Source: Candidatus Heimdallarchaeota archaeon (GTDB lineage: Archaea; Asgardarchaeota; Heimdallarchaeia; Heimdallarchaeales; Heimdallarchaeaceae). From it: 16,675 bases of DNA. Of the stretch, positions 1 to 15,977 are shown in pieces (positions within the stretch are counted from its first letter, which is position 1; every line of letters starts with the position of its first letter). Below the pieces are notes generated by a model. The model was given only the letters and a program-made list of their open reading frames with translations. It made no database searches and was not told where the DNA came from. A program made the position numbers and the translations under genes. Where the stretch lies: positions 1 through 16,675 of the forward strand of contig JAAFKJ010000122.1 in the NCBI GenBank assembly GCA_021399395.1, written 5' to 3'.

Positions 1-110
1 AAGCCAAACCAAAAGCTAAAGATACCAAAGATACCAAAGATACCAAAGATACCAAAGATACCAAAGATACCAAAGATACCAAACCAAAATCCAAATCAAA
101 AGAGGAGTAA
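1..110 (+). CDS. rps3: 3' end of a gene, by position ribosomal protein uS3 (partial; low-complexity C-terminal tail)
   Basis: Frame starting at nt 3 is open: AKPKA(KDT)x7 KPKSKSKEE, stop TAA 108-110, followed by AGGTG SD and uL29. Identity rests only on the conserved order uS3-uL29; no core domain is visible. Confidence 0.7.
   Translation, partial: AKPKAKDTKDTKDTKDTKDTKDTKDTKPKSKSKEE
18..80 (+). repeat. 9-bp tandem repeat AAAGATACC x7, encoding (KDT)7
   Basis: Seven perfect copies counted: 18-26, 27-35, 36-44, 45-53, 54-62, 63-71, 72-80. Confidence 0.97.
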
Positions 111-120
111 GGTGTAAAAA

Positions 121-324
121 ATGGCCATTATCAGAAATAGTGAAATAAGAAAGATGAACAAAGATCAAAGGCTTAGAAAATTAGAAGAATTTAAGAAAAA
201 ACTCTTTACAATTCAATCCGAACTTTCATCTGGAGGTTCAATTGAGAATCCTGGGCAAATTCAAGAATATAAAAAAGCTATTGCTCGTCTTAGAACAATA
301 ATGACTGAATTAGATGAAATTTAA
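121..324 (+). CDS. rpl29: 50S ribosomal protein uL29
   Basis: 67 aa; EIRKM...ENPGQIQEYKKAIARLRT motif; SD AGGTG upstream; operon position. Confidence 0.95.
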   Translation: MAIIRNSEIRKMNKDQRLRKLEEFKKKLFTIQSELSSGGSIENPGQIQEYKKAIARLRTIMTELDEI

Positions 325-632
325 TGTCAAAGACAAATAAGAGAGGGAGTAGGAAAGCTTCTGTTTGGAAAAGCCTTACTAAATCTTTGATAGGTTTGAG
401 GGTTAGTATCCATAGAAGTTCTTCAAAAGAATGGGAGGGAATAAAAGGTATCATAATTGATGAAACCTTTAATTTGCTAAAAATAGAAAAAGCGGGTAAA
501 ATTATATCAATTCCAAAATCCAATCAAGTTTTTGAGCTCGAGATTGACGATGGATCGAAAATTCTAGTTGACGGTCACCTCCTAGAAGGCAATCCTGAAC
601 ACCGTATAAAGAAGAAGTTAAGAAATTGGTAA
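324..632 (+). CDS. rnp1: Ribonuclease P protein component 1 (Rpp29/Pop4)
   Basis: LIGL.V...GIKGIIIDETFNLLKI...IPK...VDG.LL.G.PE.RIKK pattern; lies between uL29 and uS17; TAATG overlap with rpl29. Confidence 0.9.
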   Translation: MSKTNKRGSRKASVWKSLTKSLIGLRVSIHRSSSKEWEGIKGIIIDETFNLLKIEKAGKIISIPKSNQVFELEIDDGSKILVDGHLLEGNPEHRIKKKLRNW

Positions 633-682
633 TAATTTATCTGTTTAGTTTATCCATTTTTATTCGTATTACTTGTAATTTC
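633..682 (+). terminator. T-rich tract, putative archaeal terminator after rnp1
   Basis: TTTATCTGTTTAGTTTATCCATTTTTATT directly after the stop and before a promoter-like element. Confidence 0.45.
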
Positions 683-695
683 TAAAAAGACTTAA

Positions 696-714
696 CAATA
701 AAAAGTATTAAAAA
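696..714 (+). promoter_or_regulatory. Putative internal BRE+TATA promoter for the rps17-rpl6 unit
   Basis: CAATAAAAAGTATTAAAAA: purine-rich BRE-like run followed by TATTAAAA; exact copy at 4753-4771. Confidence 0.7.
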
Positions 715-770
715 GATAGAAATTGGCAAAAATCTGAAAACATATTCGTATTGAATAAAAGATACGTATA

Positions 771-864
771 GGTATGCGACGTCTTACTCCAAAGAAATTT
801 GGAGCTATGATTGCTTCCTTTGTTTTTGAATACAGGGGAATGCATGGGTATAAGACGCTATACC
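771..864 (+). ncRNA. Candidate structured 5' leader (three-way junction) upstream of rps17
   Basis: Pairings read by eye: GGTATG 771-776/TATACC 859-864; CGTCTTA 780-786/TAAGACG 851-857; CTCCAAA-GAAA-TTTGGAG 787-804; CTATG 805-809/CATGG 843-847; TTCCTTTGT 815-823/ACAGGGGAA 832-840. Abuts the SD GAGGTGA 865-871. Confidence 0.65.
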
Positions 865-877
865 GAGGTGAAAAGAA

Positions 878-1210
878 ATGAGTAAAGTAAGGAATGTAGG
901 TATTCCAGGCGTTGAACCCCCTACTACCGAGTGTGATGACCCACGATGTCCTTTTCATGGACGACTTCCAGTAAGAGGAAGAGTATTCACAGGTAAGGTG
1001 GTTTCAGATAAAATGCGAAGAACTGTTGTTATTAGACGAGATTATCTGAAGTATGTTAAAAAATACAGAAGATACGAACGTGCACATGGGAAAATTTCTG
1101 CCCACAATCCTCCTTGTTTGAATGTAAAAGAAGGAGATATAGTTGTAGCTGCAGAATGCAGACCACTAGCTAAGACTGTAGGTTTTGTCGTTGTTCAAAA
1201 AGTAAATTAA
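878..1210 (+). CDS. rps17: 30S ribosomal protein uS17
   Basis: [32 protein letters not shown] motifs; SD GAGGTGA. Confidence 0.98.
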
Positions 1211-1219
1211 GGTGATAAA

Positions 1220-1636
1220 ATGGCAAAAAGAAAAGTTATTGGTAGACCTCAAGTTCATATTACTAAGGGGTTAATAGTTGGTTCAAGGATGAAATGTGCA
1301 GATAATTCTGGAGCACGTATTGTTCAGATTATTGCTGTTAAGAACTACCGAGGTAGACTTAACCGTATCCCTAAAGCATCAGTTGCAGATATGGTAATAG
1401 TATCTGTCAAACAAGGAACCCCACAGAGAAGAAAACAAATCTTTCCTGCTGTGGTAGTGAGACAAAAGCTAGCTTTTCGTCGTAGATCTGGAGATTGGAT
1501 TGAATTTGAGGAGAATGCAGTAGTTTTGACAAATGAAGTTGGTGATCCTATAGGAAGCGAAATTCGAGGACCTGTTGCTAAAGAAGCAGCTGAAAGGTGG
1601 CCAAGAATTGCACACCAAGCTTCAATAATAGTGTAG
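1220..1636 (+). CDS. rpl14: 50S ribosomal protein uL14
   Basis: CADNSGAR, AVVVRQK, FEENAVV, GPVAKEAAERWPRIA motifs. Confidence 0.98.
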   Translation: MAKRKVIGRPQVHITKGLIVGSRMKCADNSGARIVQIIAVKNYRGRLNRIPKASVADMVIVSVKQGTPQRRKQIFPAVVVRQKLAFRRRSGDWIEFEENAVVLTNEVGDPIGSEIRGPVAKEAAERWPRIAHQASIIV

Positions 1637-1646
1637 GTGAAAGAAG

Positions 1647-2213
1647 ATGAAACAAACACAATCAAAACAACCTCGAAAACAAAGAAAAAGCCATTTCAAA
1701 GCAGATTATCATTTGAGAAATCGAAAAATGACTGCTCTTCTATCTGATGCATTAAGAGAGAAATATGGTATTAAACGTCTTCCAATTCATAAGGACGATA
1801 AAGTAATAGTTTTCAAAAATGTTTCAAAAGATGAAGAAATCAAAGGAAAAGTGATACGTGTTCTACCCCAAAGATATTCAATTCATGTTGAAGGGCACAG
1901 TAAAGAAAAAGCAGATGGTACAATTGTCAGTTTTCCTGTTCATCCAAGTAATATCATTATTACTTCGCTAAATCTCCGAGATAAGAGAAGACGCGCGATA
2001 ATTCAAAGAAGATCAAAGAAAGAAATTACCGAAGAAGAATTAACTGAAGGTATATTCGATGATGAAGCTGAAATTGTAGAAGACCTTGATGATATTGATG
2101 TTTTAGAAAGTGAAGAATTACTAGATGAAGAATTCGAAGAAATTGAGATGGATGAACTCGACGAAGAGCTCGAGGAAGAATCCAAAGTTGAACAAGAGGA
2201 GGAATCATCATGA
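1647..2213 (+). CDS. rpl24: 50S ribosomal protein uL24 with a 63-aa acidic C-terminal extension
   Basis: SKQPRKQRK, LS..LREKYGIKRLPIHKDDKV, VHPSNIIIT motifs; residues 126-188 contain 35 D/E. Confidence 0.96.
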   Translation: MKQTQSKQPRKQRKSHFKADYHLRNRKMTALLSDALREKYGIKRLPIHKDDKVIVFKNVSKDEEIKGKVIRVLPQRYSIHVEGHSKEKADGTIVSFPVHPSNIIITSLNLRDKRRRAIIQRRSKKEITEEELTEGIFDDEAEIVEDLDDIDVLESEELLDEEFEEIEMDELDEELEEESKVEQEEESS

Positions 2214-2956
2214 CAAAAGGTGGAGGAAAACGACATTTAAAGAGATATGTTATTTCTAAACATATTCCAATTCACAAGAAAGCTTACAAATACACAGTGA
2301 GACCAGCTCCTGGACCTCATGCTGCAGATGATTGTATCCCAATCGCAATATTGCTCAGAGATATGTTTCATTATGCACGCAATATGAGTGAAGTTAAACG
2401 CATTTTATTCGAACGTAATGTAATCATTGATGGTAAAGTTAAAACAAATAGAAAACATCCCCTAGGATTTATGGATGTTGTTTCTTTGCCTAAGATGCAA
2501 AAACATTACAGAATGGTATATGCACTTAAACAGGGATTAAGACCTATTTCTATTAAAGAAGCTGAAACAAAAGAAAAATTGTGTCAGATTAAGAACAAAA
2601 CAGCCATCAAAGATGGTTTAATACAGCTTAATCTACATGATGGACGAAATATAGTTCTTAGTAAAGGAGCAACAACTACAAATTCTTATTTCACACATGA
2701 TACCATAAAAATCTCTCTTCCTGATCAGAAGATAGTTGAGAGGTATGAACTCAAAGTTGGAAATTATGGTTTCGTTACAAGTGGTAGATGGATGGGTAAG
2801 CACGGAACTATTGAAGAGATTAGTACACATGGTACTAAGATGACAAAGACAGTTACATTGAGTACTCCTGAAGGAGAAAACTTAGTTACTCTCTACAGAT
2901 ACATTTTCGTTGTAGGGAACAAAACTCCAAGTGTGACTATTGCAGAAGAGAAGTAG
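2210..2956 (+). CDS. rps4e: 30S ribosomal protein eS4
   Basis: GGKRHLKR, PGPH, PLGFMDVV, QLNLHDGRNI motifs; ATGA overlap with rpl24. Confidence 0.98.
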   Translation: MTKGGGKRHLKRYVISKHIPIHKKAYKYTVRPAPGPHAADDCIPIAILLRDMFHYARNMSEVKRILFERNVIIDGKVKTNRKHPLGFMDVVSLPKMQKHYRMVYALKQGLRPISIKEAETKEKLCQIKNKTAIKDGLIQLNLHDGRNIVLSKGATTTNSYFTHDTIKISLPDQKIVERYELKVGNYGFVTSGRWMGKHGTIEEISTHGTKMTKTVTLSTPEGENLVTLYRYIFVVGNKTPSVTIAEEK

Positions 2957-2966
2957 GTGATGATGG

Positions 2967-3533
2967 ATGGCAGAAGAAGTTATAGAACAAGAAGCATTCG
3001 TTCCTAAATTCAATGAAGAATGGAAAAAACATCCTATGAAAAAGCCTATCTTAAAAGCGCTAATTATTAACACTAGTGTTGGTGAATCAGGTCCTAGATT
3101 TGAAAGAGCAAAAGAAATACTCCGCCAAATCACAAAACGTGAACCAGTAGATAGACCAGCAAAAGAATCAATTAGAGGTTTTGGAATTCGTAAAGGAGAA
3201 CCAATTGCTGCAGTAGTAACATTAAGAGGGGAAGATGCAACAACATTACTCAGAAGATTGCTCTATGCTTATGATTATGAAGTTAAATCAAGTTCTTTTG
3301 ATCAACAAGGTAACTTCGCCTTTGGTATTACTGAGCACGTCGATATTGAAAATGCTCCATTTGATCCAATGTTAGGTACAATTGGTTTTAATGTGGTGGT
3401 AAAAATTGAACGTCCAGGATATCGAGTAAAGTATAGACAAAGAAAGAGGCAGAAGCTACCTAAGAAACATTATGTTTCTCCAGAAGAAGCAATGGAGTTC
3501 ATAACAACAGAATTTGATATGAGGATCGTGTAG
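2967..3533 (+). CDS. rpl5: 50S ribosomal protein uL5
   Basis: INTSVGESG, FGIRKGEPIA, SFDQQGNFAFGI.EH, RPGYRVK motifs. Confidence 0.98.
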   Translation: MAEEVIEQEAFVPKFNEEWKKHPMKKPILKALIINTSVGESGPRFERAKEILRQITKREPVDRPAKESIRGFGIRKGEPIAAVVTLRGEDATTLLRRLLYAYDYEVKSSSFDQQGNFAFGITEHVDIENAPFDPMLGTIGFNVVVKIERPGYRVKYRQRKRQKLPKKHYVSPEEAMEFITTEFDMRIV

Positions 3534-3542
3534 GTGACGGAA

Positions 3543-3710
3543 ATGCAGGAAAAACGAGAAATTAAATATGGAAAAGGATCAAGAACATGCAGACGTTGTG
3601 GAACTCATAAAGCTATTATAAGACGTGGAGGCTTATTTGTTTGCCGACGATGTATACGAGAGATATATTCCAAAATCGGCTTCAAGAAAACAGGAGGCCG
3701 TGGAGGCTAA
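3543..3710 (+). CDS. rps14: 30S ribosomal protein uS14, zinc-binding type (not in the ORF track)
   Basis: Translated by hand, 55 aa: [55 protein letters not shown]. Two CxxC motifs, SD AGGTGA, canonical position between uL5 and uS8. Confidence 0.96.
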
Positions 3711-3723
3711 GGAGGACAGAAAA

Positions 3724-4113
3724 ATGCAAATGGATACATTAGCAGATGCAATGTCTGCAATACTAAACGCAGAAAAAACAGGTAAGAAAACCGTCACTGT
3801 TAAACCAGCTAGCAAAACGATTGCAAATGTTCTAAGAACAGCTCAAAGAGCAGGTTATCTTGGTGAACTTGAATTTATTGAGAATCATCGAGGTGGACTG
3901 TTCGAAATCCAACTATTAGGACGTATCAACAAATGCGGTGTTGTTAAACCACGTTTTCCAGTGAAAAAGGATCAATTTGAAGAAGAAGAAAGAAAATATC
4001 TACCAGCTAGAGGTTTTGGAATACTTATAATGACAACTCCTGAAGGTGTGATGACTCATGAGGATGCCAAAGAGAAAGCAATAGGCGGTCGTTTATTGGC
4101 CTATATATACTAA
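3724..4113 (+). CDS. rps8: 30S ribosomal protein uS8
   Basis: DTLADAMSAILNAE, GRINKCGVVKPRF, GGRLLAYIY. True start is ATG 3724 after GGAGG; the track's 3625 start overlaps rps14. Confidence 0.97.
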   Translation: MQMDTLADAMSAILNAEKTGKKTVTVKPASKTIANVLRTAQRAGYLGELEFIENHRGGLFEIQLLGRINKCGVVKPRFPVKKDQFEEEERKYLPARGFGILIMTTPEGVMTHEDAKEKAIGGRLLAYIY

Positions 4114-4124
4114 GGTGATATGTG

Positions 4125-4676
4125 ATGAAGCAACTCTACTTACAAAGAGAAATTGAAGTTCCTGAAGATTTGAAATTAACAATTAAAGATAAAGTTGTTA
4201 CAGTTGAAGGACCTAAGGGTACTCTAACTAGAAGCTTTGAAAATGTTGATTTTGATATCAACAAAAAAGGGAAGAAAGTTCACATAAAAGCTTATTATAT
4301 CAACAAAAAACGAAAAGCAGCTACTCTTGCTGTTGTTGGTTACATAAACAACATGATAAAAGGCACTATGGACGGATATCTCTTTAAATCTAAAATAATC
4401 TTTAGTCATTTTCCTATTACTGTCGAGCCCGATAATAAGAAGAAACTCGTTACTATCAAGAATCTATATGGTGGAAGAAAACACATTATAGTACCAATTG
4501 TAGGATCAGATACCAAAGTTTCCATAGATAAGGATGATGTGATTATTAAAGGAATTGACAAAGAAGCTGTAGGGCAAACAACTGCAAATATGCAAGAAGC
4601 TTGCAGATTACGTGGTAAAAGAAGAAAAGATCCTGAAACTTTTATGGACGGCATATGGTTGTGGCATAAAGAATAG
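4125..4676 (+). CDS. rpl6: 50S ribosomal protein uL6
   Basis: V.GPKG.L.R, HFPITV, GIDKEAVGQTTAN, KD.ETFMDGIW motifs; start ATG 4125 (or GTG 4122). Confidence 0.97.
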   Translation: MKQLYLQREIEVPEDLKLTIKDKVVTVEGPKGTLTRSFENVDFDINKKGKKVHIKAYYINKKRKAATLAVVGYINNMIKGTMDGYLFKSKIIFSHFPITVEPDNKKKLVTIKNLYGGRKHIIVPIVGSDTKVSIDKDDVIIKGIDKEAVGQTTANMQEACRLRGKRRKDPETFMDGIWLWHKE

Positions 4677-4681
4677 CCACA

Positions 4682-4750
4682 TCTATTTTATTTTCATAAC
4701 ACTATTTTTATTTTTGTTTCTTTCAATTCCTCAAATTAGTTTATTTTCTT
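4682..4750 (+). terminator. Long T-rich tract, putative terminator after rpl6
   Basis: Several T4-T5 runs, e.g. TATTTTTATTTTTGTTTCTTTC, immediately after the stop. Confidence 0.55.
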
Positions 4751-4752
4751 AC

Positions 4753-4771
4753 CAATAAAAAGTATTAAAAA
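4753..4771 (+). promoter_or_regulatory. Putative internal BRE+TATA promoter for the rpl32e-rpl15 unit
   Basis: CAATAAAAAGTATTAAAAA, identical to 696-714, about 55 nt upstream of the rpl32e start. Confidence 0.7.
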
Positions 4772-4825
4772 CTCAAGAAGGAAGGGTAGCGTACATTACA
4801 AGGTAACATTCTACTGTGAGTGCTT

Positions 4826-5356
4826 ATGACAACCGATAAAAAGAAGTTATTGGAAAAACGAAAGCAGATCAATGCTCGTAGACCTAAATTTGTACGTCAA
4901 GAAAGTTGGCGTTACAACCGTGTCAAAAAGAGTTGGCGAAAGCCAAAGGGTATTGATAATAAAATGCTTGAGAAACGAAGAGGTTACCCTTCTATGGTTA
5001 GCATAGGATATAGGGGACCTAAAAAAGTCAGAGGTCTACATCCTTCGGGTTATCAGGTAGTTCATGTTGCTAATATCTACGAATTAGAAGAAGTAGATAA
5101 AGAAAATGAAGCAATTATTATTAAGCATACTGTGGGTGCTCGAAAACGGCAGGCTATTTTAGACACTGCGTCCGATTTGGGGCTAAAAATTATTAATCCT
5201 CCAGCTCGAATAGAAGAGTTTGGTGAAGTACTCGAAGAAGGTTTGCTTGAAGAAGAATATGAACTCCTTGATGATGAGTTCGAGTTCGATGAAGATCTCG
5301 AATTGGATGAAGACCTAGAATCAGATGAAGAACCTAAGGAGGATTCTTCATCGTAG
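4826..5356 (+). CDS. rpl32e: 50S ribosomal protein eL32 with a 47-aa acidic C-terminal extension
   Basis: RPKFVRQE, WRKPKGIDNK, GYRGPKKVRGLHPSG motifs; the last 47 aa contain 26 D/E; start ATG 4826 (or GTG 4820). Confidence 0.97.
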   Translation: MTTDKKKLLEKRKQINARRPKFVRQESWRYNRVKKSWRKPKGIDNKMLEKRRGYPSMVSIGYRGPKKVRGLHPSGYQVVHVANIYELEEVDKENEAIIIKHTVGARKRQAILDTASDLGLKIINPPARIEEFGEVLEEGLLEEEYELLDDEFEFDEDLELDEDLESDEEPKEDSSS

Positions 5357-5379
5357 AGAAACTGAAGTGAGGTTTGATT

Positions 5380-5844
5380 ATGGACGTTAAAACCCAAAGA
5401 AGAATAGCTGCTAAGATTCTAAAAGTCGGAGTTAATCGAGTGAAGATTGATCCTGATAGCTTACCTGATGTTGCTTTGGCTATTACACGAGAAGATGTTC
5501 GCCGTCACATTGATGATGGTGATATCAAAAAGCGTAAAGTCAAAGGGATAAGTAGGGGAAGAGCAAAAGCTGTTGCAGCCAAAAAGAAAAGAGGACAAAG
5601 AATCGGACCTGGAAGTCGAAAAGGACCTAAATATTCCCGTCTTTCAAGCAAAGATAGATGGAAGAATAAGGTTAGAGCTCAAAGAAAGTATTTGAAATCA
5701 CTTAGAGATGAAGAATATATTGACACTATTAACTATAGAAAGCTCTATCTCCAATCAAAAGGTGGTCTTTTCCGTTCTGTTCGCTATCTTCGAAACTATA
5801 TTGCTGAACATGGTTTAGCAAAGAAACGTCTTCCGGAATTGTAA
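5380..5844 (+). CDS. rpl19e: 50S ribosomal protein eL19
   Basis: QRRIAAKILKVGVNRV, AITREDVR, GPGSRKG, KGGLF motifs; ATG 5380 preferred for its spacing from GAGGT. Confidence 0.97.
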   Translation: MDVKTQRRIAAKILKVGVNRVKIDPDSLPDVALAITREDVRRHIDDGDIKKRKVKGISRGRAKAVAAKKKRGQRIGPGSRKGPKYSRLSSKDRWKNKVRAQRKYLKSLRDEEYIDTINYRKLYLQSKGGLFRSVRYLRNYIAEHGLAKKRLPEL

Positions 5845-5856
5845 TGAGGTGTAAAT

Positions 5857-6498
5857 ATGTCAAGACGAAGAAGAAGAGGTTTCAAAAAGAAACGAAGATT
5901 ACAACAGAAGCAGAAAAGGCAAGGTCCACTATATAGAGTGCCTTTCAGAAGACGTAGAGAAATGAAGACTGATTATCAACAACGTAAGAGACTCCTAAAA
6001 TCTGGTAAAATACGTTTTATAGCCCGTCCTTCCAACAAGCAAGTTATGGTTCAATTTGTAGAATCAAAAATCGGTGGTGATCATACTTTTGTTCAAGTAA
6101 GATCTAACGATTTGAAAAAGCATGGATGGGATATAGCTACCTCAAATCTTCCAGCTGCTTATCTAACCGGCTATCTAGCTGGAAAGAAAGCTGCTAAAGC
6201 TAAGATTAAGGAAGCTATTTTAGATGTAGGAACTTTTGCAGTCAACCCTGGTACAAGAATATTTGCTACATTGAAGGGTGTTGTTGATGCTGGCATTACT
6301 GTGCCATATAATGAACGAATGGTCCCTCCTGAAGATCGAATCAGGGGTGAGCATATTAAGGCTTATGCAAAACAATTAGCAAAAGATGATAAAGAGAAAT
6401 ATGACAAAATATTCTCAAAATATCTTGCAGTTAGTAAAAAACCTGAAGATTTGCCTAAATTGTTTGACGCAACCAAATCTAAAATCGACACAATATAA
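5857..6498 (+). CDS. rpl18: 50S ribosomal protein uL18 with a basic N-terminal extension
   Basis: GP.YRVPFRRRRE.KTDY, NLPAAYLTG, LKG.VDAG, RIRGEHI motifs. Confidence 0.97.
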   Translation: MSRRRRRGFKKKRRLQQKQKRQGPLYRVPFRRRREMKTDYQQRKRLLKSGKIRFIARPSNKQVMVQFVESKIGGDHTFVQVRSNDLKKHGWDIATSNLPAAYLTGYLAGKKAAKAKIKEAILDVGTFAVNPGTRIFATLKGVVDAGITVPYNERMVPPEDRIRGEHIKAYAKQLAKDDKEKYDKIFSKYLAVSKKPEDLPKLFDATKSKIDTI

Positions 6499-6512
6499 TG
6501 AGGTAGAAAAAA

Positions 6513-7151
6513 ATGAGTAGAGATATGTATATGGATCTAGATGAATGGGAACCTCGAACACGAGTTGGAAGACTTGTGAAAGAGGGTAGAATTACCACAA
6601 TCGATGAGATATTCCAACAAGGATTACCTCTAGTTGAACCAGAAATTGTAGACATGCTATTTGGCGATACCATAGAAGATAATGTTGTGGATATTAGTTT
6701 GGTGCAAAGACAAACAGATGCTGGTAGAAAAAGAAAATTCAGGGCAACAGTTGTTGTTGGAAACAAAAATGGTTATGTTGGTGTCGGTGAAGCTAAATTG
6801 AAAGAAATTGGCCCCGCCATCAAGAAAGCAATTGTCAATGCAAAACTAAACATAAGACCAATTAGAAGAGGATGTGGTTCATGGGAATGTTCATGTGGAA
6901 CTCCCCATACTGTACCGTACAAAGTAACAGGAAAAGTTGGATCTACAGAAGTGATTCTCTATCCCGCACCAAGAGGACTTGGATTAGTGGTTGGTAACAT
7001 TGCAAAGACAGTTTTAGAGCTGGCAGGAATTTCAGATGTTTGGAGTAAAACATTTGGTGAAACCAGAACAACATCTAACTTCGCAAAAGCAACATTTGAA
7101 GCATTAAAGAACAGCTATGAAATCATGGCTCCATATGATTGGACACGTTAA
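6513..7151 (+). CDS. rps5: 30S ribosomal protein uS5
   Basis: [41 protein letters not shown] motifs. Confidence 0.98.
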
Positions 7152-7165
7152 GGAAGTTGGAAAGA

Positions 7166-7654
7166 ATGAGTCAAAATAAAGACAAACTAGAACTAATAGC
7201 AGTCATTCGTCTGAGAGGAACAGTCAATGTCCATTTCAAAGTCAAAGAGAACCTTGAGATGTTGAATGTTCGAAGAGCTAACTATATGACCTTGGTACCT
7301 AACACTTCCTCTTATCTGGGAATGTTAAAGAAAGCCAAAGATTTCATTACTTGGGGCGAAGTCAATCAAACAGCTCTAGAACATGTAATTGCAAAACGTG
7401 GTGAACTTCCAGGTAGAACAAAGATAACTAACAAATACTTGAAGGATACTACTCCCTTCACAACAATAAAGGCCTTATCAAAAGCATTCTTAACTGGTGA
7501 AGCACATTTCAAAGATGTTCCAGAGATGAAAAGATTCTTTAGACTACATCCAGCTAGAAAGGGATACAAGACAGTTAAAAGAGGCTTTGCAGAAGGTGGT
7601 GAACTTGGTTATAGAGGTTCTGCTATAAATGAATTAATTGTGAGGATGGCTTGA
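7166..7654 (+). CDS. rpl30: 50S ribosomal protein uL30
   Basis: AVIRLRG, GMLKKAKDFITWGE, FRLHPARKG, GGELGYRG..IN.LI.RM motifs; ATG 7166 avoids the overlap with rps5. Confidence 0.96.
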   Translation: MSQNKDKLELIAVIRLRGTVNVHFKVKENLEMLNVRRANYMTLVPNTSSYLGMLKKAKDFITWGEVNQTALEHVIAKRGELPGRTKITNKYLKDTTPFTTIKALSKAFLTGEAHFKDVPEMKRFFRLHPARKGYKTVKRGFAEGGELGYRGSAINELIVRMA

Positions 7655-7659
7655 TAAAC

Positions 7660-8103
7660 ATGACAGTACGAACAAGAAAACGAGTAAGAAGAGAACGTGG
7701 TTACAGAACACATGGATGGGGAATAGTAAGAACCCATCGTAAAAGTGGTATGAGAGGTGGTGTTGGTAATGCTGGTCCAAAATCACATCATAAACTTCTC
7801 GTGATAAAAGGCATACGCCCCCCATTAGGTAAAAGGGGATTTGCTGTCCCTCCATCTGTTGTTGAGGATATCCCAGCAATTAATATATCTCATTTAGAAG
7901 CTATGTTACCAACTTTACTGAAAGAAGGTAAGATTACCAAAAAGGGTGAAGTTTTTGAGATTAATCTCATAGAACTAGGATATAAAAAGGTTCTAGCCCA
8001 AGGAAAAATCACTGTTGCAATGAACATTACAACAAAATATGCTTCTGAAAGAGCTGTTAGCAAAGTTAAAGCTGCAGGTGGAAAAGTAAAATTACTAGAG
8101 TAA
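7660..8103 (+). CDS. rpl15: 50S ribosomal protein uL15
   Basis: RG.RTHGWG...HRKSG.RGG.GNAG, GYKKVL..G, SE.A..KV.AAGG motifs; ATG 7660. Confidence 0.97.
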   Translation: MTVRTRKRVRRERGYRTHGWGIVRTHRKSGMRGGVGNAGPKSHHKLLVIKGIRPPLGKRGFAVPPSVVEDIPAINISHLEAMLPTLLKEGKITKKGEVFEINLIELGYKKVLAQGKITVAMNITTKYASERAVSKVKAAGGKVKLLE

Positions 8104-8133
8104 TTACTTTCCACTTTTAATTTCTTTTTTATT
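8104..8133 (+). terminator. T-rich putative terminator ending the spc unit after rpl15
   Basis: TTACTTTCCACTTTTAATTTCTTTTTTATT directly after the stop. Confidence 0.55.
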
Positions 8134-8144
8134 GGATTTCAATC

Positions 8145-8165
8145 CGAAAACCTTTTGTTTATATG
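8145..8165 (+). promoter_or_regulatory. Putative promoter for the kinase-like gene (probably leaderless)
   Basis: TTTATATG at 8158-8165 is centred about 26 nt before ATG 8187; no SD present. Confidence 0.45.
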
Positions 8166-8186
8166 CAATAAGCTGAATTGGAAACT

Positions 8187-8801
8187 ATGAAAATTTTCAT
8201 TCTTGTAGGTTTACAGTTGAGCGGGAAATCATCTCATGGTCATAGGTTGAGAGAGGAAGAGAAAGTGCCTATGGTTGAGACTGGACATGCAGTTTATCAT
8301 GAGCTCAAACGGCAAAATCTTGAAGTAAACCACAAAAATACAACTCAAGTAATTTTATCTCTTTTGTCACGAGATCCTACAGCTTTTACACAAACCATCT
8401 TGGATTATGAAGAAGACATATATGAAAATTCGTCGATATTAATACTCAATGGAGTAAAATCTCCAGCTGAAATCAATTATACAAGGAAAAGATTTGGAAA
8501 GGAAAATGTAACAGTTCTTGGCTTTCATGCAGGCCAAAAAACTAGATATAACAGAGTTACTAACCCAGATCGTTTTACAGTTTCTGGTAATTTTCTAGAG
8601 AAAACTCAAGAGGACCAAGATCTTGCAAAATGGGATAATTTTCTTAGTCGAGATGTACGGGAGATAGGACTAGGCATTGGAAACGCTCTTGCTACTGCAA
8701 ATGAAATAATAATCACAGAAGATAACAATTGGCCATTCTATTCTTTTGAAATTTCCTATAATCATTTCCGTAACTATATTATGAATGGAGTAAAATCCTA
8801 A
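8187..8801 (+). CDS. P-loop NMP-kinase-fold protein, dephospho-CoA-kinase-like (UPF0200-like), divergent
   Basis: N-terminal beta strand plus GLQLSGKS Walker A; ILNGVKS..E, HA...TRY.R and F..RD.RE..LGIG.ALA.A match the archaeal UPF0200-type pattern as I recall it. Confidence 0.7.
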   Translation: MKIFILVGLQLSGKSSHGHRLREEEKVPMVETGHAVYHELKRQNLEVNHKNTTQVILSLLSRDPTAFTQTILDYEEDIYENSSILILNGVKSPAEINYTRKRFGKENVTVLGFHAGQKTRYNRVTNPDRFTVSGNFLEKTQEDQDLAKWDNFLSRDVREIGLGIGNALATANEIIITEDNNWPFYSFEISYNHFRNYIMNGVKS

Positions 8802-8817
8802 GACCATTTCAAAAAAT

Positions 8818-9831
8818 CTAAGTGTCTTTCTTCTTACTTGGATAAGTCCCACTTTCCATAACTACCCTTTTCACACTTGCTAGAAGGCCTTGATTTATAT
8901 CTTTTAGATTTTCAGAATCAAGCTGTGCTTCACCTAGCGCAACTAGTTCTTGTTTTAATGTAAATATCCCAACTAGTGCTCCCTTACTGAAATTATTTGT
9001 GAATTTTGACACACCGGGAATTGCTAGTGGCGCACCATGACACAGTGAATTTACAGAACTATCTTTAACAAAGATCTTTGGTAAGTGTGTGACTCCCATT
9101 TCCATTGGTAAAATTATGTTTCGGAGTGGAATTTCATCATTTTCTTCTTTTGACCACATATATGCATCATATAAATCATGAAGTGTGGCTAGATAGTTGT
9201 TCTCAGAGAAGGGACCAGATTTAACTCTTCTAAGTTCTTTCATATGCGCTCCACATGAAAGACTCTGACCGATATCATGTGCATACTTTCTTACATAAAA
9301 TCCTGCTTGACTTTTAACCCAGAAGAGAACCTCTCTATTCTTGATTTCTAAGACTTTATTTTCATACACTGTTCTAATTCTTAATACCCGTTTTACGCTC
9401 GAACGAAATGGTGGTCGTTGATAAATGTCTCCCACATACTCGTTCATCATTCCCCTAATTGTTTCTTCATCTACATCTTTGTGCAAGCGCATATTGCACA
9501 CATATTCTTTAGCTGCGAGCAACAATGTGCCTAAAATCTTTGTAGCTTTGCCCAGAGCAGTTGGAAGAACTCCTGTAACAAGTGGATCTAAAGTACCAGA
9601 ATGACCTGCCTTTTTTAGATTCAATATTTTCTTAACATAACTAACTACTTCATGGCTTGTTGGTCTAGGAGGTTTGTCGATATTAATAATTCCGTAATCC
9701 AATAGCTCTTCAATAGATCTTTCTGTTGGAATTTTCCCCCATCTATAATCAGTTGTATCACTTGATAACTCTACTATGGGTGCTAAATTATCATCCAATG
9801 AAAGTTTAGGGGGAGTATAGATTAAGGTCAT
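8818..9831 (-). CDS. cbf5: H/ACA RNA-guided pseudouridine synthase Cbf5 (TruB family, PUA domain)
   Basis: DKPPRPTSHEV, catalytic KAGHSGTLDP, YQRPP.RSSVKR.LR.R, GAHM.ELRR; C-terminal PUA domain (CHGA.LAIPGV). Confidence 0.97.
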   Translation of the reverse strand: MTLIYTPPKLSLDDNLAPIVELSSDTTDYRWGKIPTERSIEELLDYGIINIDKPPRPTSHEVVSYVKKILNLKKAGHSGTLDPLVTGVLPTALGKATKILGTLLLAAKEYVCNMRLHKDVDEETIRGMMNEYVGDIYQRPPFRSSVKRVLRIRTVYENKVLEIKNREVLFWVKSQAGFYVRKYAHDIGQSLSCGAHMKELRRVKSGPFSENNYLATLHDLYDAYMWSKEENDEIPLRNIILPMEMGVTHLPKIFVKDSSVNSLCHGAPLAIPGVSKFTNNFSKGALVGIFTLKQELVALGEAQLDSENLKDINQGLLASVKRVVMESGTYPSKKKDT

Positions 9832-9855
9832 CTTTAACCAACTGTAAAAAATAGG

Positions 9856-9869
9856 GATATAAAGTTTGA
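9856..9869 (-). promoter_or_regulatory. Putative promoter of cbf5 (near-leaderless)
   Basis: Minus strand reads CAAAC-TTTATATC, about 25-30 nt upstream of the cbf5 ATG. Confidence 0.45.
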
Positions 9870-9881
9870 GGATATCTATAT

Positions 9882-10163
9882 TTATACCTTGGGAACAATT
9901 TTTTCTTCCATGTAATCCTTCAAACTTCCAGCTTCTATCGCTGCTGAAACTTCTTCGTCTGTTGCATCTCTCTTAACAGAAACTACTTTGTCAGTAGGTT
10001 CAAGGTGTCTGATATTGCATTTTCTTCGACGAACTGAAGTCATTTTTTTGGGGCCAGTAAGTAGGACATAATTTGGATCAATTATATTTATGATAACTCC
10101 TTTTTTACCAGCTTCTCTTCCATTAGTTTTTACAACTACTCTTCCAATTTGAATTGCTGTCAT
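9882..10163 (-). CDS. rpl14e: 50S ribosomal protein eL14
   Basis: IGRVVVKT.GREAGKK.VI..IID.NYVLLTGP...VRRRKCNI.HLEPT. Confidence 0.97.
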   Translation of the reverse strand: MTAIQIGRVVVKTNGREAGKKGVIINIIDPNYVLLTGPKKMTSVRRRKCNIRHLEPTDKVVSVKRDATDEEVSAAIEAGSLKDYMEEKIVPKV

Positions 10164-10714
10164 TTTTCTTCACTTTTCATTTTTTTTTCAAATGCTAATA
10201 GTATAATCTGAACACAGTCAGTTGCACTGAATCTTTGTGAATTTAAGATTATATCGTATATAGTTAAATCAGAAATATCGATATTATACAGTTTTTGATA
10301 TCTGCTTTTTTCTGATTCTTCTCTTGTGTCTGTTTCATGACGGGTTTGTTCTGTTGATTTTAGCTCTCTTAGAGTTATTCTATCAATCCGTGTATCAAAT
10401 GGAGCTGTTATGTAGACTAACATATCTGCTATATCTTTCAGCATCCATCCACCCAGTTGTGCATCAATAACAATGTTGTTTTTTGATTCTGCAATTTCAA
10501 CTGTTTTATCGTCAATAAATTTGTCAATTTCATCTTGTAATTCAGCTTTTTTGCTGAATTCTGCGAGATTCATGTTGGCGTTATCTGCCATACTTCTGAA
10601 TAGTTCCCCAGCTGAAATATACTCATAGTTAAGTTCTTCTGCAATTCTTTTAGCAGCTGTACTTTTACCTGATCCGTGGGGACCTGAAACAGCGATGATT
10701 GGCAAACTAGCCAC
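10160..10714 (-). CDS. cmk: Cytidylate kinase (archaeal type)
   Basis: SGPHGSGKST P-loop, SAGELFR.MA, ID..ID, RY.KLYNIDI.D..IYD; lies between eL34 and eL14. The start may be TTG at 10705 given SD spacing. Confidence 0.93.
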   Translation of the reverse strand: MASLPIIAVSGPHGSGKSTAAKRIAEELNYEYISAGELFRSMADNANMNLAEFSKKAELQDEIDKFIDDKTVEIAESKNNIVIDAQLGGWMLKDIADMLVYITAPFDTRIDRITLRELKSTEQTRHETDTREESEKSRYQKLYNIDISDLTIYDIILNSQRFSATDCVQIILLAFEKKMKSEEK

Positions 10715-10721
10715 CTCCTCC

Positions 10722-10982
10722 CTAGTCGCTGCGTACTTCGGCTTTAATAGCGCCTTTCAGACATCTGGAGCACAAATAACCTGCATGAACTCTAGATGGA
10801 AGACGTTCAGAGCGTGACATTTTTCTTACTCTATTTTGTCGACCGAAGGCTACTCCATGTAGAATAGCTCCACATTTAGAACAATGTGGTTTTTTAGTTC
10901 TTTTTTCGATTTTCACTAATTTTGTTTCAGATGGGATTCTTCTCAATCTTGTTTTTGCGACTCGTAACGAAGGTTTAACCAT
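10722..10982 (-). CDS. rpl34e: 50S ribosomal protein eL34
   Basis: CSKCGAILHGV...SER.PSR..AGYLCSRC zinc motifs; canonical position; ATG 10982 (or 10988). Confidence 0.92.
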   Translation of the reverse strand: MVKPSLRVAKTRLRRIPSETKLVKIEKRTKKPHCSKCGAILHGVAFGRQNRVRKMSRSERLPSRVHAGYLCSRCLKGAIKAEVRSD

Positions 10983-10997
10983 TTTCATTCCTCACGT

Positions 10998-11690
10998 TCA
11001 TTTGTTCTTAGAACTTGTTTTCTTTTTAGCTAACTCAGCTTTAGCTGTTGAAACAGGTGTTTTAATTTGTTTATGTTCTGGTTTCTTTATTTTGGTTTTG
11101 GTTGCACCTGAAGGGGTGACACCAAATATCCTTGAAATTATGGATCCAAAAGCGAATGCTGAAATAAAGTACCATAATGTAAATGAAACTTTTGAAAATA
11201 TTCGTCCATTATATTCTTCCTGTCCTAACCAAGATGATTGTCCTATCCAAGGGAAATCCCCTAGATTGAAAGGTAACCAAGCATAGTAATGACCAAATTC
11301 ACCTACAGGGAATGCATTTCTAAGTATTGCAAATATCAGTAGGAATGGTATAGTTGTAAATAACATGGGCTTCATACGTTTAAACATCATAGATGATTGC
11401 ATCTTCTTAATACGTTCCTCATCTCTTTTAACGCTTAACCACAGTTTTTTATCAGCAGTAGACATAGCTTGTTTCTTGCGTTTATTCCATTCATTGACTT
11501 TTTGCATGCTTTCTTTTAATGCATCAACATCTGTAACTAATCTAGTGATAAAGGTCGATAAAATTGCAATTAGAATTGCAGTTATCGCTATTATCCATGC
11601 AGATGTTGGACGTTGATTCAAATCATTTCTTATCATCCAATCTGTAATACCTTGAAACCAATCATCCCAGAATGCCATAATTAAAACCAT
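10998..11690 (-). CDS. DUF106 / EMC3-TMCO1 (Oxa1 superfamily) membrane insertase-like protein
   Basis: TM1, coiled coil, MKPMLFTTIPFLLIF, LPF and WYFISAF...SRIFG; conserved location upstream of eL34; Lys-rich C-terminal tail. Confidence 0.88.
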   Translation of the reverse strand: MVLIMAFWDDWFQGITDWMIRNDLNQRPTSAWIIAITAILIAILSTFITRLVTDVDALKESMQKVNEWNKRKKQAMSTADKKLWLSVKRDEERIKKMQSSMMFKRMKPMLFTTIPFLLIFAILRNAFPVGEFGHYYAWLPFNLGDFPWIGQSSWLGQEEYNGRIFSKVSFTLWYFISAFAFGSIISRIFGVTPSGATKTKIKKPEHKQIKTPVSTAKAELAKKKTSSKNK

Positions 11691-11722
11691 ATTCTGTGCT
11701 TATTATTTCAGAATTTATTTGC

Positions 11723-11738
11723 TTTTTAAAAGCTTTTG
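11723..11738 (-). promoter_or_regulatory. Putative promoter for the DUF106-rpl34e-cmk-rpl14e unit
   Basis: Minus strand reads CAAAAG-CTTTTAAAAA, about 35 nt upstream of ATG 11690. Confidence 0.5.
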
Positions 11739-11766
11739 TAACTTGAGTATATTGGAGCCTATAAAA

Positions 11767-12492
11767 TTACTGTATTTTATTCCTTAGAAGTAGGAAAATA
11801 TTATCATCACCTTTTACTCCTCCAAGTTTAGAAAGATTAACTATCTCAAAACCACTTCTTTGTACAATATTCACTAATTCTCGTTTTGTAAATAAGTGAT
11901 AATATCTCTCAGCAACGATTTTTCTATTATTGTCAAACCAAGGCAAATAAATGTCTCCATGCCTCCATAATCTGTTTCTCAGTTTTTTATGGGGATAGAA
12001 TATTACCTCTTTGAGCATCTTTCTCCTTGATCCTTTCTTCCACCTTCTCCAACATGATACTATTAGATAATTATTCTTCTTCAAAGTGCTACGAATACTC
12101 CTTAGTACTTCTACAACATCATTTTTGTTTCTTAGATGGTGGAGTGTTGCTATACATAGTGCTAAATCTGCAAAATTGTTTATTAGAGAGAGAAATTTCA
12201 TATCACTGTTCACACGGTAAATTTTGTTTTCTTCCAAGGTGATGGCATTATGTAATAGTTCAAAGGAAATGTCAATCCCTATGTGTTCCCATTTTTGATC
12301 TTCAAAGAAGAGAAGATTTCTACAATTACCCGTTCCTATATCAAGCATAATTCCAGATGTGGGAATTGTGTAACTTTGACTAATTTGCATCATAAATTGT
12401 AGAAAATCTTTCCATGGTTTCGTCTTTAAACTTGTGTACTTTGGGGAGATTTTTCTGTATGCCTCTATAAGTTCGTAATCCACATCTTTCAA
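11767..12492 (-). CDS. Class I SAM-dependent methyltransferase, Trm9/ALKBH8-like
   Basis: Y.KI...Y.....KPW, LDIGTGN, GIDIS, D.ALCIATLHHL, DIYLPW and RYYHLF...EL motifs; TTG start uncertain. Confidence 0.8.
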   Translation of the reverse strand: MKDVDYELIEAYRKISPKYTSLKTKPWKDFLQFMMQISQSYTIPTSGIMLDIGTGNCRNLLFFEDQKWEHIGIDISFELLHNAITLEENKIYRVNSDMKFLSLINNFADLALCIATLHHLRNKNDVVEVLRSIRSTLKKNNYLIVSCWRRWKKGSRRKMLKEVIFYPHKKLRNRLWRHGDIYLPWFDNNRKIVAERYYHLFTKRELVNIVQRSGFEIVNLSKLGGVKGDDNIFLLLRNKIQ

Positions 12493-12524
12493 GATGAATT
12501 GTCAATGTCTTGGTCCTTTATCAA

Positions 12525-12558
12525 CTTTATTTATAACTGAATAAGAAATTTTATATAT
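12525..12558. promoter_or_regulatory. Back-to-back TATA-like boxes for the divergent methyltransferase and oxidoreductase genes
   Basis: Minus strand TTATAAAT at 12529-12536; plus strand AAGAAAT-TTTATATA at about 12543-12556. Confidence 0.45.
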
Positions 12559-12600
12559 TCACTTGTCTTTACTCAAAACGAGTAAATATCTTTAAGGTTG

Positions 12601-13560
12601 ATGAGAAAAATGGAAACACTCAACATAGCTGTAATAGGTGTAGGAAGCTGGGGAAAGAATCATGCTAGAGTTTTTAGTGAAATGGAAAACGTAAATCTTC
12701 ACAGTATTCATGATTTAAATTACAATCATGCATCTGAATTAGCTAAAATACATAATACTCAAGCGATTAAAAATCTTGATGATTTATTGAAAAATGAAGA
12801 AATTGATGCCATAACTATCGCAACACCTACTTCAGCACATGCTGAAATAGCTTTACAAGCTATAGGGTATGGTAAACATGTTCTTGTTGAGAAACCAATG
12901 ACAAGCACAATTGAAGAAGCTGAAAAGATTCTTGATGCTGAAAAACAAAACAATGTTATTGTTTCAGTTGGATTTATAGAACGTTTTAATCCTATTGTTT
13001 ATCGATCTAAACAACTTATTCAGAATGAGGAACTGGGAGAACTTGTTCTCATAAGTGCAAGAAGATTAGGACCATATTGGCCAGATAGATTGAAAGATGT
13101 AGATGTTATTAGGGATGTAAGTATCCATGATATAGATGCTTTCAGATATTTGATTTCTAAAGAGCCAAAATCAGTCTATGCTAGAGGTGGAAAACTGCGA
13201 CACACTTATCTCGACTATGCAGAAATTCTACTAGATTTTGGAAATGGAGTTACAGGTTTCATAGAATCCAATTACCTTACACCACATAAACTTAGAAAAC
13301 TAATGTTAACATGTGAAAAGGGGATTGTTGAGGCAGATTATATCTCTCAAGAGTATGTTATTGAAGATGCGGAATGGTTAAGAAACAAGAAAATGCAATG
13401 GCAAGAACCCCTAAGTAAAGAAATGAATGCATTTATTGAAGCATGTCGAGGGAATGCTCCACCTGTTGTAACTTCCTTAGATGGTATTAATGCCTTGAAA
13501 ATCGCTCTATCTTCTATCCTAAGTATAGAAAGTCATAAAGTAATTGATTTAGATCTGTGA
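12601..13560 (+). CDS. Gfo/Idh/MocA family NAD(P)-dependent oxidoreductase, resembling UDP-N-acetylglucosamine 3-dehydrogenases
   Basis: VIGVGSWGKNHAR Rossmann motif, HVLVEKP, VGFIERFNP, D.SIHDID, NYLTPHKLRKL. Start is ATG 12601 or 12610. Substrate is inferred. Confidence 0.88.
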   Translation: MRKMETLNIAVIGVGSWGKNHARVFSEMENVNLHSIHDLNYNHASELAKIHNTQAIKNLDDLLKNEEIDAITIATPTSAHAEIALQAIGYGKHVLVEKPMTSTIEEAEKILDAEKQNNVIVSVGFIERFNPIVYRSKQLIQNEELGELVLISARRLGPYWPDRLKDVDVIRDVSIHDIDAFRYLISKEPKSVYARGGKLRHTYLDYAEILLDFGNGVTGFIESNYLTPHKLRKLMLTCEKGIVEADYISQEYVIEDAEWLRNKKMQWQEPLSKEMNAFIEACRGNAPPVVTSLDGINALKIALSSILSIESHKVIDLDL

Positions 13561-13609
13561 TGTAAAATAAGTAGAAAACAAAATGGAAAAATAAAAAGGG
13601 AAGGAGATT
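13561..13609 (-). terminator. Pyrimidine/T-rich putative terminator downstream of secY
   Basis: Plus strand is A/G-rich (AAAACAAAATGGAAAAATAAAAAGGG), which gives T-runs on the secY strand. Confidence 0.5.
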
Positions 13610-15073: not shown

Positions 15074-15113
15074 TGAAACACCGGTTCGAATTCATTCTCA
15101 ATGAAGTTCTTCT

Positions 15114-15131
15114 ATTTATAAGCATTTTTCT
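15114..15131 (-). promoter_or_regulatory. Putative own promoter of secY
   Basis: Minus strand reads AGAAAAATGC-TTATAAAT, about 45 nt upstream of the ATG; GGTG SD at 15079-15082. Confidence 0.55.
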
Positions 15132-15240
15132 GTATGTTACAAACAGAGAAATTTTCTTTTTCTTGTCTAAAAGAAGAAATAGCACATCATGGTAATATTT
15201 TTAATATTATCAATTTACAAAGTGTATTGTTCAAAATGCA

Positions 15241-15325
15241 GCCAGGATACTCAAGCCTGGTATGAGGCTAGATTGGAAATCTAGTGTCGATAGACTCCGG
15301 GGTTCAAATCCCCGTCCTGGCTCCA
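15241..15325 (+). tRNA. tRNA-Ser(GGA), intronless, CCA encoded
   Basis: Acceptor GCCAGGA/TCCTGGC; D arm CTCA..TGAG; anticodon arm CTAGA-TTGGAAA-TCTAG (GGA at 15275-15277); variable arm GTC-GATA-GAC; T arm CGGGG-TTCAAAT-CCCCG; then T-CCA. Confidence 0.95.
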
Positions 15326-15357
15326 TCCATTCTTGATACTCTAGAGTTTTTGTCTTT

Positions 15358-15378
15358 GAAGCAAATGTTTAAAAAAAT
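15358..15378 (+). promoter_or_regulatory. Putative promoter of the rps13-rps4 (alpha) operon
   Basis: GCAAATG-TTTAAAAA (TATA at 15368-15375) predicts a start near 15398, just 5' of the structured region. Confidence 0.5.
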
Positions 15379-15406
15379 CTTCTACGCTCTCAAACTGAAG
15401 TCATTT

Positions 15407-15505
15407 GTGCTATTATCTAGTTGGTAAGCACTGGGCGAAGCTCTAAGGGGAACTCCCCACTCTGATATACTTCAGAGGTAAGAGCACCACAACTCCGGGT
15501 TGTGG
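15407..15505 (+). ncRNA. Candidate structured 5' leader upstream of rps13 (hairpin, three-way junction, hairpin)
   Basis: GTGCT 15407-11/AGCAC 15427-31; GCTCT 15440-44/AGAGC 15481-85 enclosing GGGG-AACT-CCCC 15447-58 and CTCTGA-TATACT-TCAGAG 15460-77; CCACAAC-TCCGG-GTTGTGG 15487-15505. A GC-rich island in AT-rich intergenic DNA. Confidence 0.68.
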
Positions 15506-15528
15506 AATAAAACAAACAAAGTGATAAC

Positions 15529-15972: not shown

Positions 15973-15977
15973 TATAA

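Follow-up and report, generated by a model that had tools for sequence, protein, structure and literature searches.

Does the DNA in front of rps17 in Heimdallarchaeaceae encode an RNA that controls the synthesis of ribosomal proteins? The question is raised by a contig of Candidatus Heimdallarchaeota archaeon (GenBank assembly GCA_021399395.1, contig JAAFKJ010000122.1, positions 1 to 16,675 of the forward strand; this whole stretch of 16,675 nucleotides is called the window below). In it, a sequence-only reading had noticed, at 743-877, a candidate ribosomal leader RNA built as a three-way junction with a GAAA tetraloop and abutting the Shine-Dalgarno (SD) sequence of rps17. Known cis-regulatory RNAs of archaea are very few, and uS17 is the only primary 16S rRNA-binding protein that is not known to have a regulatory role in E. 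coli.

Gene context and predicted transcript

The gene for uS17 (rps17; 878-1210, + strand; Pfam Ribosomal_S17, 5e-26) is the first of a unit that continues with the tightly packed genes for uL14, uL24, eS4, uL5, uS14, uS8 and uL6 (1220-4676, + strand; Pfam). It is preceded by L29 (121-324) and by the RNase P subunit Rpp29 (324-632), both assigned with Pfam, and the gap between Rpp29 and S17 amounts to 245 bases. Downstream of L6, a 143-base gap is followed by L32e, L19e, L18, S5, L30 and L15 (Pfam). The ORF directly after L15 (8178-8801, 207 aa) has no Pfam match, and a Cbf5-like pseudouridine synthase is encoded on the minus strand at 8818-9831. At the other end of the window, positions 18-83 consist of 7.3 perfect tandem copies of AAAGATACC, in the 3' end of a 5'-open gene that lies before L29; the AAAGATACC repeats encode (KDT)n in a lysine-rich tail.

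Archaeal promoters have a BRE/TATA architecture, with a usual spacing from the TATA element to the start. The gap before rps17 contains a promoter-like box, CTTAACAATAAAAAGTATTAAAAAGAT (691-717, + strand), which has a TATA-like core at about 705-715 and is nearly invariant in 23 same-genus sequences. A second copy of this box is found at about 4745-4772, before the L32e unit, and relatives likewise carry copies about 4 kb downstream. The 14-base core of the box occurs exactly only at these two sites; 18 genome sites have at most one mismatch, and one near-match appears to precede a tRNA gene. By its BRE/TATA-like architecture, the box at 691-717 may be regarded as a putative promoter. Judged by spacing only, the predicted transcription start is the G after a T at position 736 (+ strand), some 23-27 nt after the TATA-like core, and the TG at this place is nearly invariant in the alignment of the 23 same-genus sequences. 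For a transcript starting at about 736 the leader would measure some 142 nt, although its start could be at another place and cleavage could remove it.

Of the 22 same-genus relatives, no more than 6 have Rpp29 in front of the unit (tblastn). In at least two relatives, L018 and L022, a divergent tRNA gene, intron-sized, is located upstream of the S17 unit; this gene was missed by ARAGORN and found with the Rfam tRNA model. The S17 unit must therefore have its own promoter there. Taken as a gene arrangement, 736-877 is best read as the putative mRNA 5' leader of the uS17-uL14-uL24-eS4-uL5-uS14-uS8-uL6 unit in Heimdallarchaeaceae.

None of the RNA sequencing runs searched contained the sequence of the window organism itself: X14 covered only 1564-1700, and X18, X19 and X20 represent relatives, about 90% alike. 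In one study, two metatranscriptomic libraries yielded contigs that join the leader of a relative, about 90% alike, to rps17-rpl14. Both contigs begin within this leader, their first aligned bases lying some 66-68 nt 5' of window position 841, and their unaligned 5' parts resemble the AUUG-hairpin-AUG segment of the leader. These contigs give a weak indication that the leader is co-transcribed with rps17-rpl14, DNA carry-over being possible and the ends and strand of a contig not being those of an RNA.

Fold of the leader RNA

Folding of 765-880 with RNAfold gives a minimum free energy (MFE) structure of -35.9 kcal/mol in which the core, 771-864, is a three-way junction. A comparison with dinucleotide shuffles, which the sequence-only reading had proposed as a check, yielded a mean of -22.3 and a standard deviation of 3.1 for the shuffles; the native fold was the more stable in 200 out of 200 cases, none being equally stable (z -4.38). 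The three-way junction is recovered when 633-900 is folded as a whole (z -3.39). The minus strand of the region gives a stable fold as well (z -5.5), so that energy alone leaves the strand of the leader RNA undecided; the plus strand is assigned because G-U pairs are frequent in the relatives (e.g. GU 19 and AU 18 at one pair).

The helices that had been drawn from the letters are all present, namely the two-part closing stem (771-776/859-864 and 780-786/851-857), the hairpin at 787-804 and the long arm at 805-847, and so are the GUA linker at 848-850 and the SD, GAGGTGA at 865-871, immediately 3' of the closing stem. The remark that nearly every base of 771-864 is paired was a little generous, the dot-bracket count being about 72 of 94.

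The closing stem comprises P1a and P1b. In P1a, GGUA (771-774, + strand) pairs with UACC (861-864, + strand), and three of its four pairs have changed in a compensatory way; both complete Ca. Heimdallarchaeum genomes, for instance, have AA/UU in place of GG/CC. In P1b, GACGUCUUA (778-786, + strand) faces AAGACGC (852-858, + strand), with G778 paired to C858, 780-785 paired to 852-857 and A779 bulged. P2 is a 7-bp hairpin (787-804, + strand) that carries a GAAA loop in the window. P3, the long arm (805-847, + strand), has its base at 805-807/845-847 and a distal helix that begins at 812-814/842-844; the four bases of its bulge, 808-811, read UGAU in the window and ARAU in most relatives. The base of P3, which was part of the sequence-only reading, is backed by the covariation consensus, the MFE structure pairing 806-808 with 848-850 instead. 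The junction strand J3/1 is GUAU (848-851, + strand). Directly after P1a starts the SD, GAGGUGA (865-871, + strand), which is unpaired in the folded state (RNAfold, 765-880); the 16S rRNA of a same-genus relative ends in ..GGAUCACCUCCU.

Upstream of the junction, the small hairpin that had been placed at 743-757 is indeed present in the window, with an MFE alternative at 741-768 (P0, + strand). It is the weakest part of the element: sequence and position vary in the relatives, with energies from -1.2 to -10 kcal/mol. Folded one by one (MFE), the majority of the 23 sequences from the same genus form one hairpin here, and a few, L007, L011 and L022, fold differently. In genus g10 P0 is absent, and the Rpp29 stop codon lies there 6 nt before P1a; the junction alone is therefore the conserved unit.

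Conservation and covariation

When 41 genomes were searched at the DNA level, 22 same-genus relatives proved to have the whole region, with identities of 73-90%. In a MAFFT alignment of the resulting 23 sequences, 96.8% of the cells in paired columns can pair and 13 of 29 pairs show compensatory changes; none of 500 shuffles scored as high on any measure, and partners slid out of register were paired in 37-50%. A covariance model, R1, was built from this alignment. The larger alignment, which has 63 rows and 37 distinct sequences, is model-fitted and hence biased towards the model, as the MAFFT alignment is not; it gave 96.1% of 1054 cells paired, compensatory changes at 18 of 29 pairs, again 0 of 500 shuffles as high, and 37-45% for slid partners. 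Structural conservation and covariation in relatives, on which the leader proposal had been made to depend, are thus found in both alignments.

Invariance was counted in the 29 sequences that were obtained without pattern scans; the 8 further distinct sequences add nothing on this point because their scans demanded the invariant words. Twenty-five bases do not vary: GACGUC 778-783, A786, C805, AUU 810-812, AUGGGU 844-849, AGACGC 853-858 and the UG within the SD. Both P1b strands are represented by their invariant words in 29/29, together with A786, and 6 of the 7 P1b pairs are without any variation; in P3, C805, AUU 810-812 and AUGG 844-847 are fixed, and in J3/1, G848 and U849 are the same in 29/29. 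The helices that radiate from this core are free to change, with covariation in 7/7 pairs of P2, which change on both sides, in 7/8 of distal P3 and in 3/4 of P1a, while the pair 807-845 at the base of P3 alternates between GU (19) and AU (18). Invariant bases clustered at the junction, with P2 and distal P3 free, are the pattern of a putative binding site held by a scaffold. The 771-864 structure is almost certainly a functional RNA.

Both P1b strands being invariant and GACGTC being a palindrome, the conserved words could also be viewed at the DNA level, GACGTCTTA and TAAGACGC being inverted-repeat half-sites for a transcription factor. This is very improbable. The spacing between the half-sites is variable, at about 50-75 bp, the site lies downstream of the promoter box, and the helices in between covary with G-U pairs that are sensible only as RNA.

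It could also be argued that the leader serves in mRNA processing or stability, either as a 5' UTR cut by an endonuclease or as a folded 5' end that protects the mRNA. The portion of PMC5499594 drawn on here describes Methanolobus ribosomal operons whose mRNAs live longer and are translated more after being cut close to the RBS, and the two RNA-library contigs of a relative begin inside the leader, although contig ends prove little. A stabilising hairpin, however, needs neither 25 invariant bases nor a three-way junction, and I consider this explanation unlikely; processing and protein binding are not mutually exclusive and could both apply.

Not all the features of the window proved to be conserved. 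The GAAA tetraloop, which had been presented as a defining feature, is there in the window but occurs in 10/29 Heimdallarchaeaceae members; the loop is variable, and its role as a conserved tertiary-contact element is rejected. A 24-codon upstream ORF (807-881), whose stop overlaps the rps17 start (AUGA), was considered as a conserved leader peptide and discarded: its ATG, which exists only where the bulge reads CUAUGAUUG, is found in 3/29 sequences (the window, L002 and L003), so that this ORF is probably incidental. A minus-strand ORF (692-958) was discarded as well, relatives carrying 1-, 2- and 4-base indels across its span. Pairing of the CUCC of P2 with the SD was rejected, the P2 sequences differing in four genera, and so was an intrinsic-terminator-like site at 801-817 (one site versus 0.5 expected by chance), the T-run of which is not conserved.

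Distribution and position of the element

R1 finds exactly one match per genome in 29 of the 47 genomes of the order, the window's own genome included. By family, these are 28 of 30 other Heimdallarchaeaceae (f1) and 0 of 16 genomes in the three remaining families of the order. In the whole class the count is 29 of 83, with 0/36 in three additional families and hence 0/52 in the six other families together. The S17 match is missing too in the two Heimdallarchaeaceae genomes that lack a match to R1. Pattern scans added 24 loci from species genomes and 10 metagenome contigs, and the leader loci include Ca. Heimdallarchaeum endolithica, Ca. Heimdallarchaeum aukensis and AB_125. Among the class genomes searched, the element is restricted to one family, the Heimdallarchaeaceae. 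In L067, a 7.6-kb contig binned as Atribacteria, the leader scores 137 bits, and the S17 match behind it has only 49% identity; the contig is probably a mis-binned Heimdallarchaeal contig, which leaves the low S17 identity unexplained.

In every locus checked for it, rps17 is directly 3' of the leader, and the element stands directly before the rps17 SD in 29/29 Heimdallarchaeaceae sequences and in the metagenome loci checked. An SD-like purine-rich run comes right after the last P1a column in 37/37 distinct sequences, as GAGGUGA in 28, GGAGUGA in 5, GAGUUGA in 3 and AAGGUGA in 1.

These data bear on the idea that the fold is a separate small RNA gene that acts in trans and merely lies upstream of rps17, into which it is read through. 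Its own promoter-like box, its compact stable fold and the U-rich P3 loops of many members would agree with such a gene. By contrast, the 3' strand of the closing helix adjoins the SD in 37/37 sequences, the single match per genome is never elsewhere, the T-run of P3 is not conserved and lies within the fold, no terminator is present between the fold and the SD, and features of C/D, H/ACA or tRNA molecules were not found. A trans-acting small RNA is therefore quite improbable; that the leader acts in cis on the rps17 operon is, for its part, very probable.

Loci of other families and a second candidate leader

Families f2 and f4 (4 loci) and f5 and f7 (21 loci) have rps17 1-15 nt after the Rpp29 stop and are leaderless. 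Since four other families have this arrangement, control by a leader is dispensable in kin. In f3, a sister family of the same order (L101-L110; 10 loci, 6 genera), the gap before rps17 measures about 210-310 nt and holds a TATA-like box. The RNA predicted there has an outer helix that ends 0-7 nt before the SD and, in its interior, a helix AGCCN/NGGUU with two hairpins inside it, one variable and one of the form GGAA-[N RUCAGG]-UUCC. The RUCAGG loop of the latter has its complement in a CCUGAY further upstream, and this pseudoknot covaries, as GUCAGG/CCUGAC in 5 loci, GUCAGG/CCUGGC in 1 and AUCAGG/CCUGAU in 3, L107 being ambiguous. The f3 leader has no Rfam match. Homology of the f1 and f3 leaders was rejected, R1 with filters off giving no match at the f3 leader positions. 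The f3 RNA is thus a candidate for a second, structurally different leader before rps17.

Comparison with known RNA families and with rRNA

A search of the leader region in the window and in the loci of 9 relatives against Rfam 15 (4227 models), with E values up to 1, returned nothing; this was another of the checks suggested at the outset, and the leader has no match to any of these models. ARAGORN found no tRNA in 600-1000, and the Rfam tRNA model matches only 15241-15322 in the window.

Two classes of RNA were looked for in the alignment. In a K-turn, a bulge of three bases precedes tandem G.A/A.G pairs formed by both strands; in the leader the strand that faces the ARAU bulge is the invariant CAUGGG, which is without a GA step, so that a K-turn or L7Ae site was not found. 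C/D box sRNAs have a C box, RUGAUGA, and a D box, CUGA. Conserved boxes of this kind were not found, and there are no Rfam C/D matches in the leader; CUAUGAUUG is confined to the window, L002 and L003, and in its place CCGARAUUG or CCAARAUUG stands in most of the remaining sequences.

Mimicry of rRNA was searched for with the 16S, 23S and 5S genes of relatives, neither 16S nor 23S rRNA being assembled in the window's own genome. A blastn-short comparison of the leader with these rRNAs gave chance-level words only, the best being a 10-mer (E 1.6), and the conserved leader words are absent from the relatives' 16S and 23S. R1 with filters off produced 31 weak matches, all outside the rRNA genes, in AT-rich flanks, and when helices 11 and 21 from the 16S rRNA of a relative were inspected by eye, no convincing likeness to the leader was seen. 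Since a resemblance to rRNA was not found by sequence words, by the model or by eye, no particular protein is pointed to.

The statement that no leader was known for archaeal rps17 agrees with the literature covered, in which none was found for this operon in archaea and no cis-regulatory RNA of Asgard archaea. The supplementary motif alignments of PMC7247131 could hold a similar motif, Rfam 15 itself having no match. The leader is best read as a new RNA family, presumably of the cis-regulatory ribosomal-protein leader kind.

Two related possibilities have to be weighed at this point, a sensor of the riboswitch type and a target for some regulator other than a ribosomal protein: a small molecule, an ion or a dedicated regulatory protein would bind at the junction, the stability of P1 beside the SD would set translation, and the making of ribosomal proteins would in this way follow a growth signal. 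The tight junction does hold the conservation while the peripheral helices vary freely, the RNA that the sister family f3 has at this site is pseudoknotted and even more intricate, and rRNA mimicry was not found. The genes concerned, however, encode ribosomal proteins only, and no Rfam riboswitch matches. The sole alternative pairing that has been proposed, 847-852 with 859-864, was brought forward as a two-state switch; it can form in the window, but not as a conserved switch, since in the 37 distinct sequences, with 80.6% of cells paired, 215 of 500 shuffles score as high and covariation support is lacking. The SD, moreover, is unpaired in the fold, which leaves no visible expression platform. 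Of the features that mark a riboswitch, an aptamer-like core is therefore present and a conserved alternative pairing is not. I give this possibility a small chance, and a slimmer one to its full form, in which the junction would either represent a riboswitch of a new class or be recognised by a dedicated regulator, and the f3 leader would be a second aptamer for the same signal.

A possible translational operator

An invariant junction, variable scaffolds, a helix that touches the SD, a single copy and a fixed place together fit a translational operator bound by a protein. In this reading, to which I assign a probability of about one half, the leader would be bound by a ribosomal protein encoded in the unit, and translation at the SD would be lowered; whether the ligand is such a protein and acts by a steric block of the SD is likewise an even bet. 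The leader is, on balance, likely to be a feedback switch of a new family that governs the synthesis of ribosomal proteins. Among the points that go against an operator is one from the P1b helix: it is fully invariant Watson-Crick, which is unusual for a protein site and may reflect some other constraint.

The docking site for the trans-acting factor would comprise the helix GACGUCUU/AAGACGC with its bulged A, the junction GGGU and the base of P3 with its ARAU bulge. Of the proteins encoded in the unit, the factor would most likely be a primary rRNA-binding one, either uS17, the product of the adjacent gene, or uS8. Both uS17 and uS8 are primary 16S rRNA binders, and I know of no organism in which uS17 is known as a regulator. 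Protein in excess over free rRNA would bind the junction and, because the junction adjoins the SD, would hinder 30S binding, leading to less translation of rps17 and of the coupled downstream genes. The two proteins are proposed as candidates because of the 'closest gene' and 'prior example' rules in the portion of PMC7247131 used here.

How does such an operator compare with known systems? The closest precedent by gene content is the spc operon of E. coli, which shares L14, L24, L5, S14, S8 and L6 with the Heimdallarchaeaceae unit. In E. coli, S8 binds where the L5 cistron begins, at a site that imitates the irregular core of helix 21. Here too a primary 16S-binding protein would feed back on the polycistronic mRNA from which it is made; unlike the S8 site, the Heimdall element is a three-way junction at the 5' end, in front of S17, and the only irregularity of its conserved helix is one bulged A. 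The operator of E. coli thrS, which mimics the anticodon arm of a tRNA, has in common with the leader a folded domain immediately 5' of an unpaired SD, so that steric competition with the 30S subunit is possible in both; in contrast to thrS, the Heimdall leader has no tRNA likeness (Rfam, ARAGORN).

Among archaea, the sections of Eckert and Weinberg (2020; PMC7247131) drawn on here describe four ribosomal leaders, for L4 in Archaeoglobi, eL15 in Euryarchaeota and S15 in Halobacteria and Methanomicrobia, with none from Asgard archaea, and they give several unrelated RNAs per ribosomal-protein operon as typical of ribosomal leaders. As in those archaeal leaders, a covarying structure precedes a ribosomal-protein gene or operon, is restricted to a lineage and has a ligand deduced from context; it differs from the leaders in these sections in heading a uS17 operon, in belonging to Asgard Heimdallarchaeaceae, in having no match in Rfam 15 and in showing no resemblance to rRNA that could be found. 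According to the parts of Qi et al. (2017; PMC5499594) that concern 5' UTRs, those of Methanolobus ribosomal operons average 154 nt, and the operons tested are rpsO and rps17e, of which rps17e encodes eS17 and not uS17. Compared with the methanogen UTRs in these parts of PMC5499594, the setting is alike: in both cases a ribosomal-protein operon of an archaeon has a 5' UTR that measures about 140-150 nt and is structured near the RBS; those UTRs, however, are defined by cleavage sites, and the Heimdall leader by a conserved covarying junction.

If the leader is an operator, it would provide a defined RNA-protein pair from Heimdallarchaeia and may be the first regulatory role for uS17. If it is a sensor, ribosome synthesis in this Asgard lineage (Heimdallarchaeia) would be under metabolite- or signal-level control. 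Two unrelated leaders at one operon boundary in sister families, together with leaderless kin, make a compact natural case of the origin and replacement of such regulators. With the invariant 25-base core and the R1 model, the element can readily be annotated and put to the test.

rRNA genes of the relatives

The rRNA genes of the relatives have peculiarities of their own. The Rfam 5S rRNA model, run on G000, G001, G004, G045 and G046, found nothing in three same-genus genomes, and the two complete Ca. Heimdallarchaeum genomes gave a score of only 31 bits, the cut-off being 38 bits; 5S rRNA of Heimdallarchaeaceae may be unusually divergent, or partly unassembled. The 23S genes of the same-genus relatives L033, L034 and L035 are 3.4-4.4 kb long, versus 2987 model positions, and this length fits reports of enlarged rRNA expansion segments in Asgard archaea (PMC7594248).
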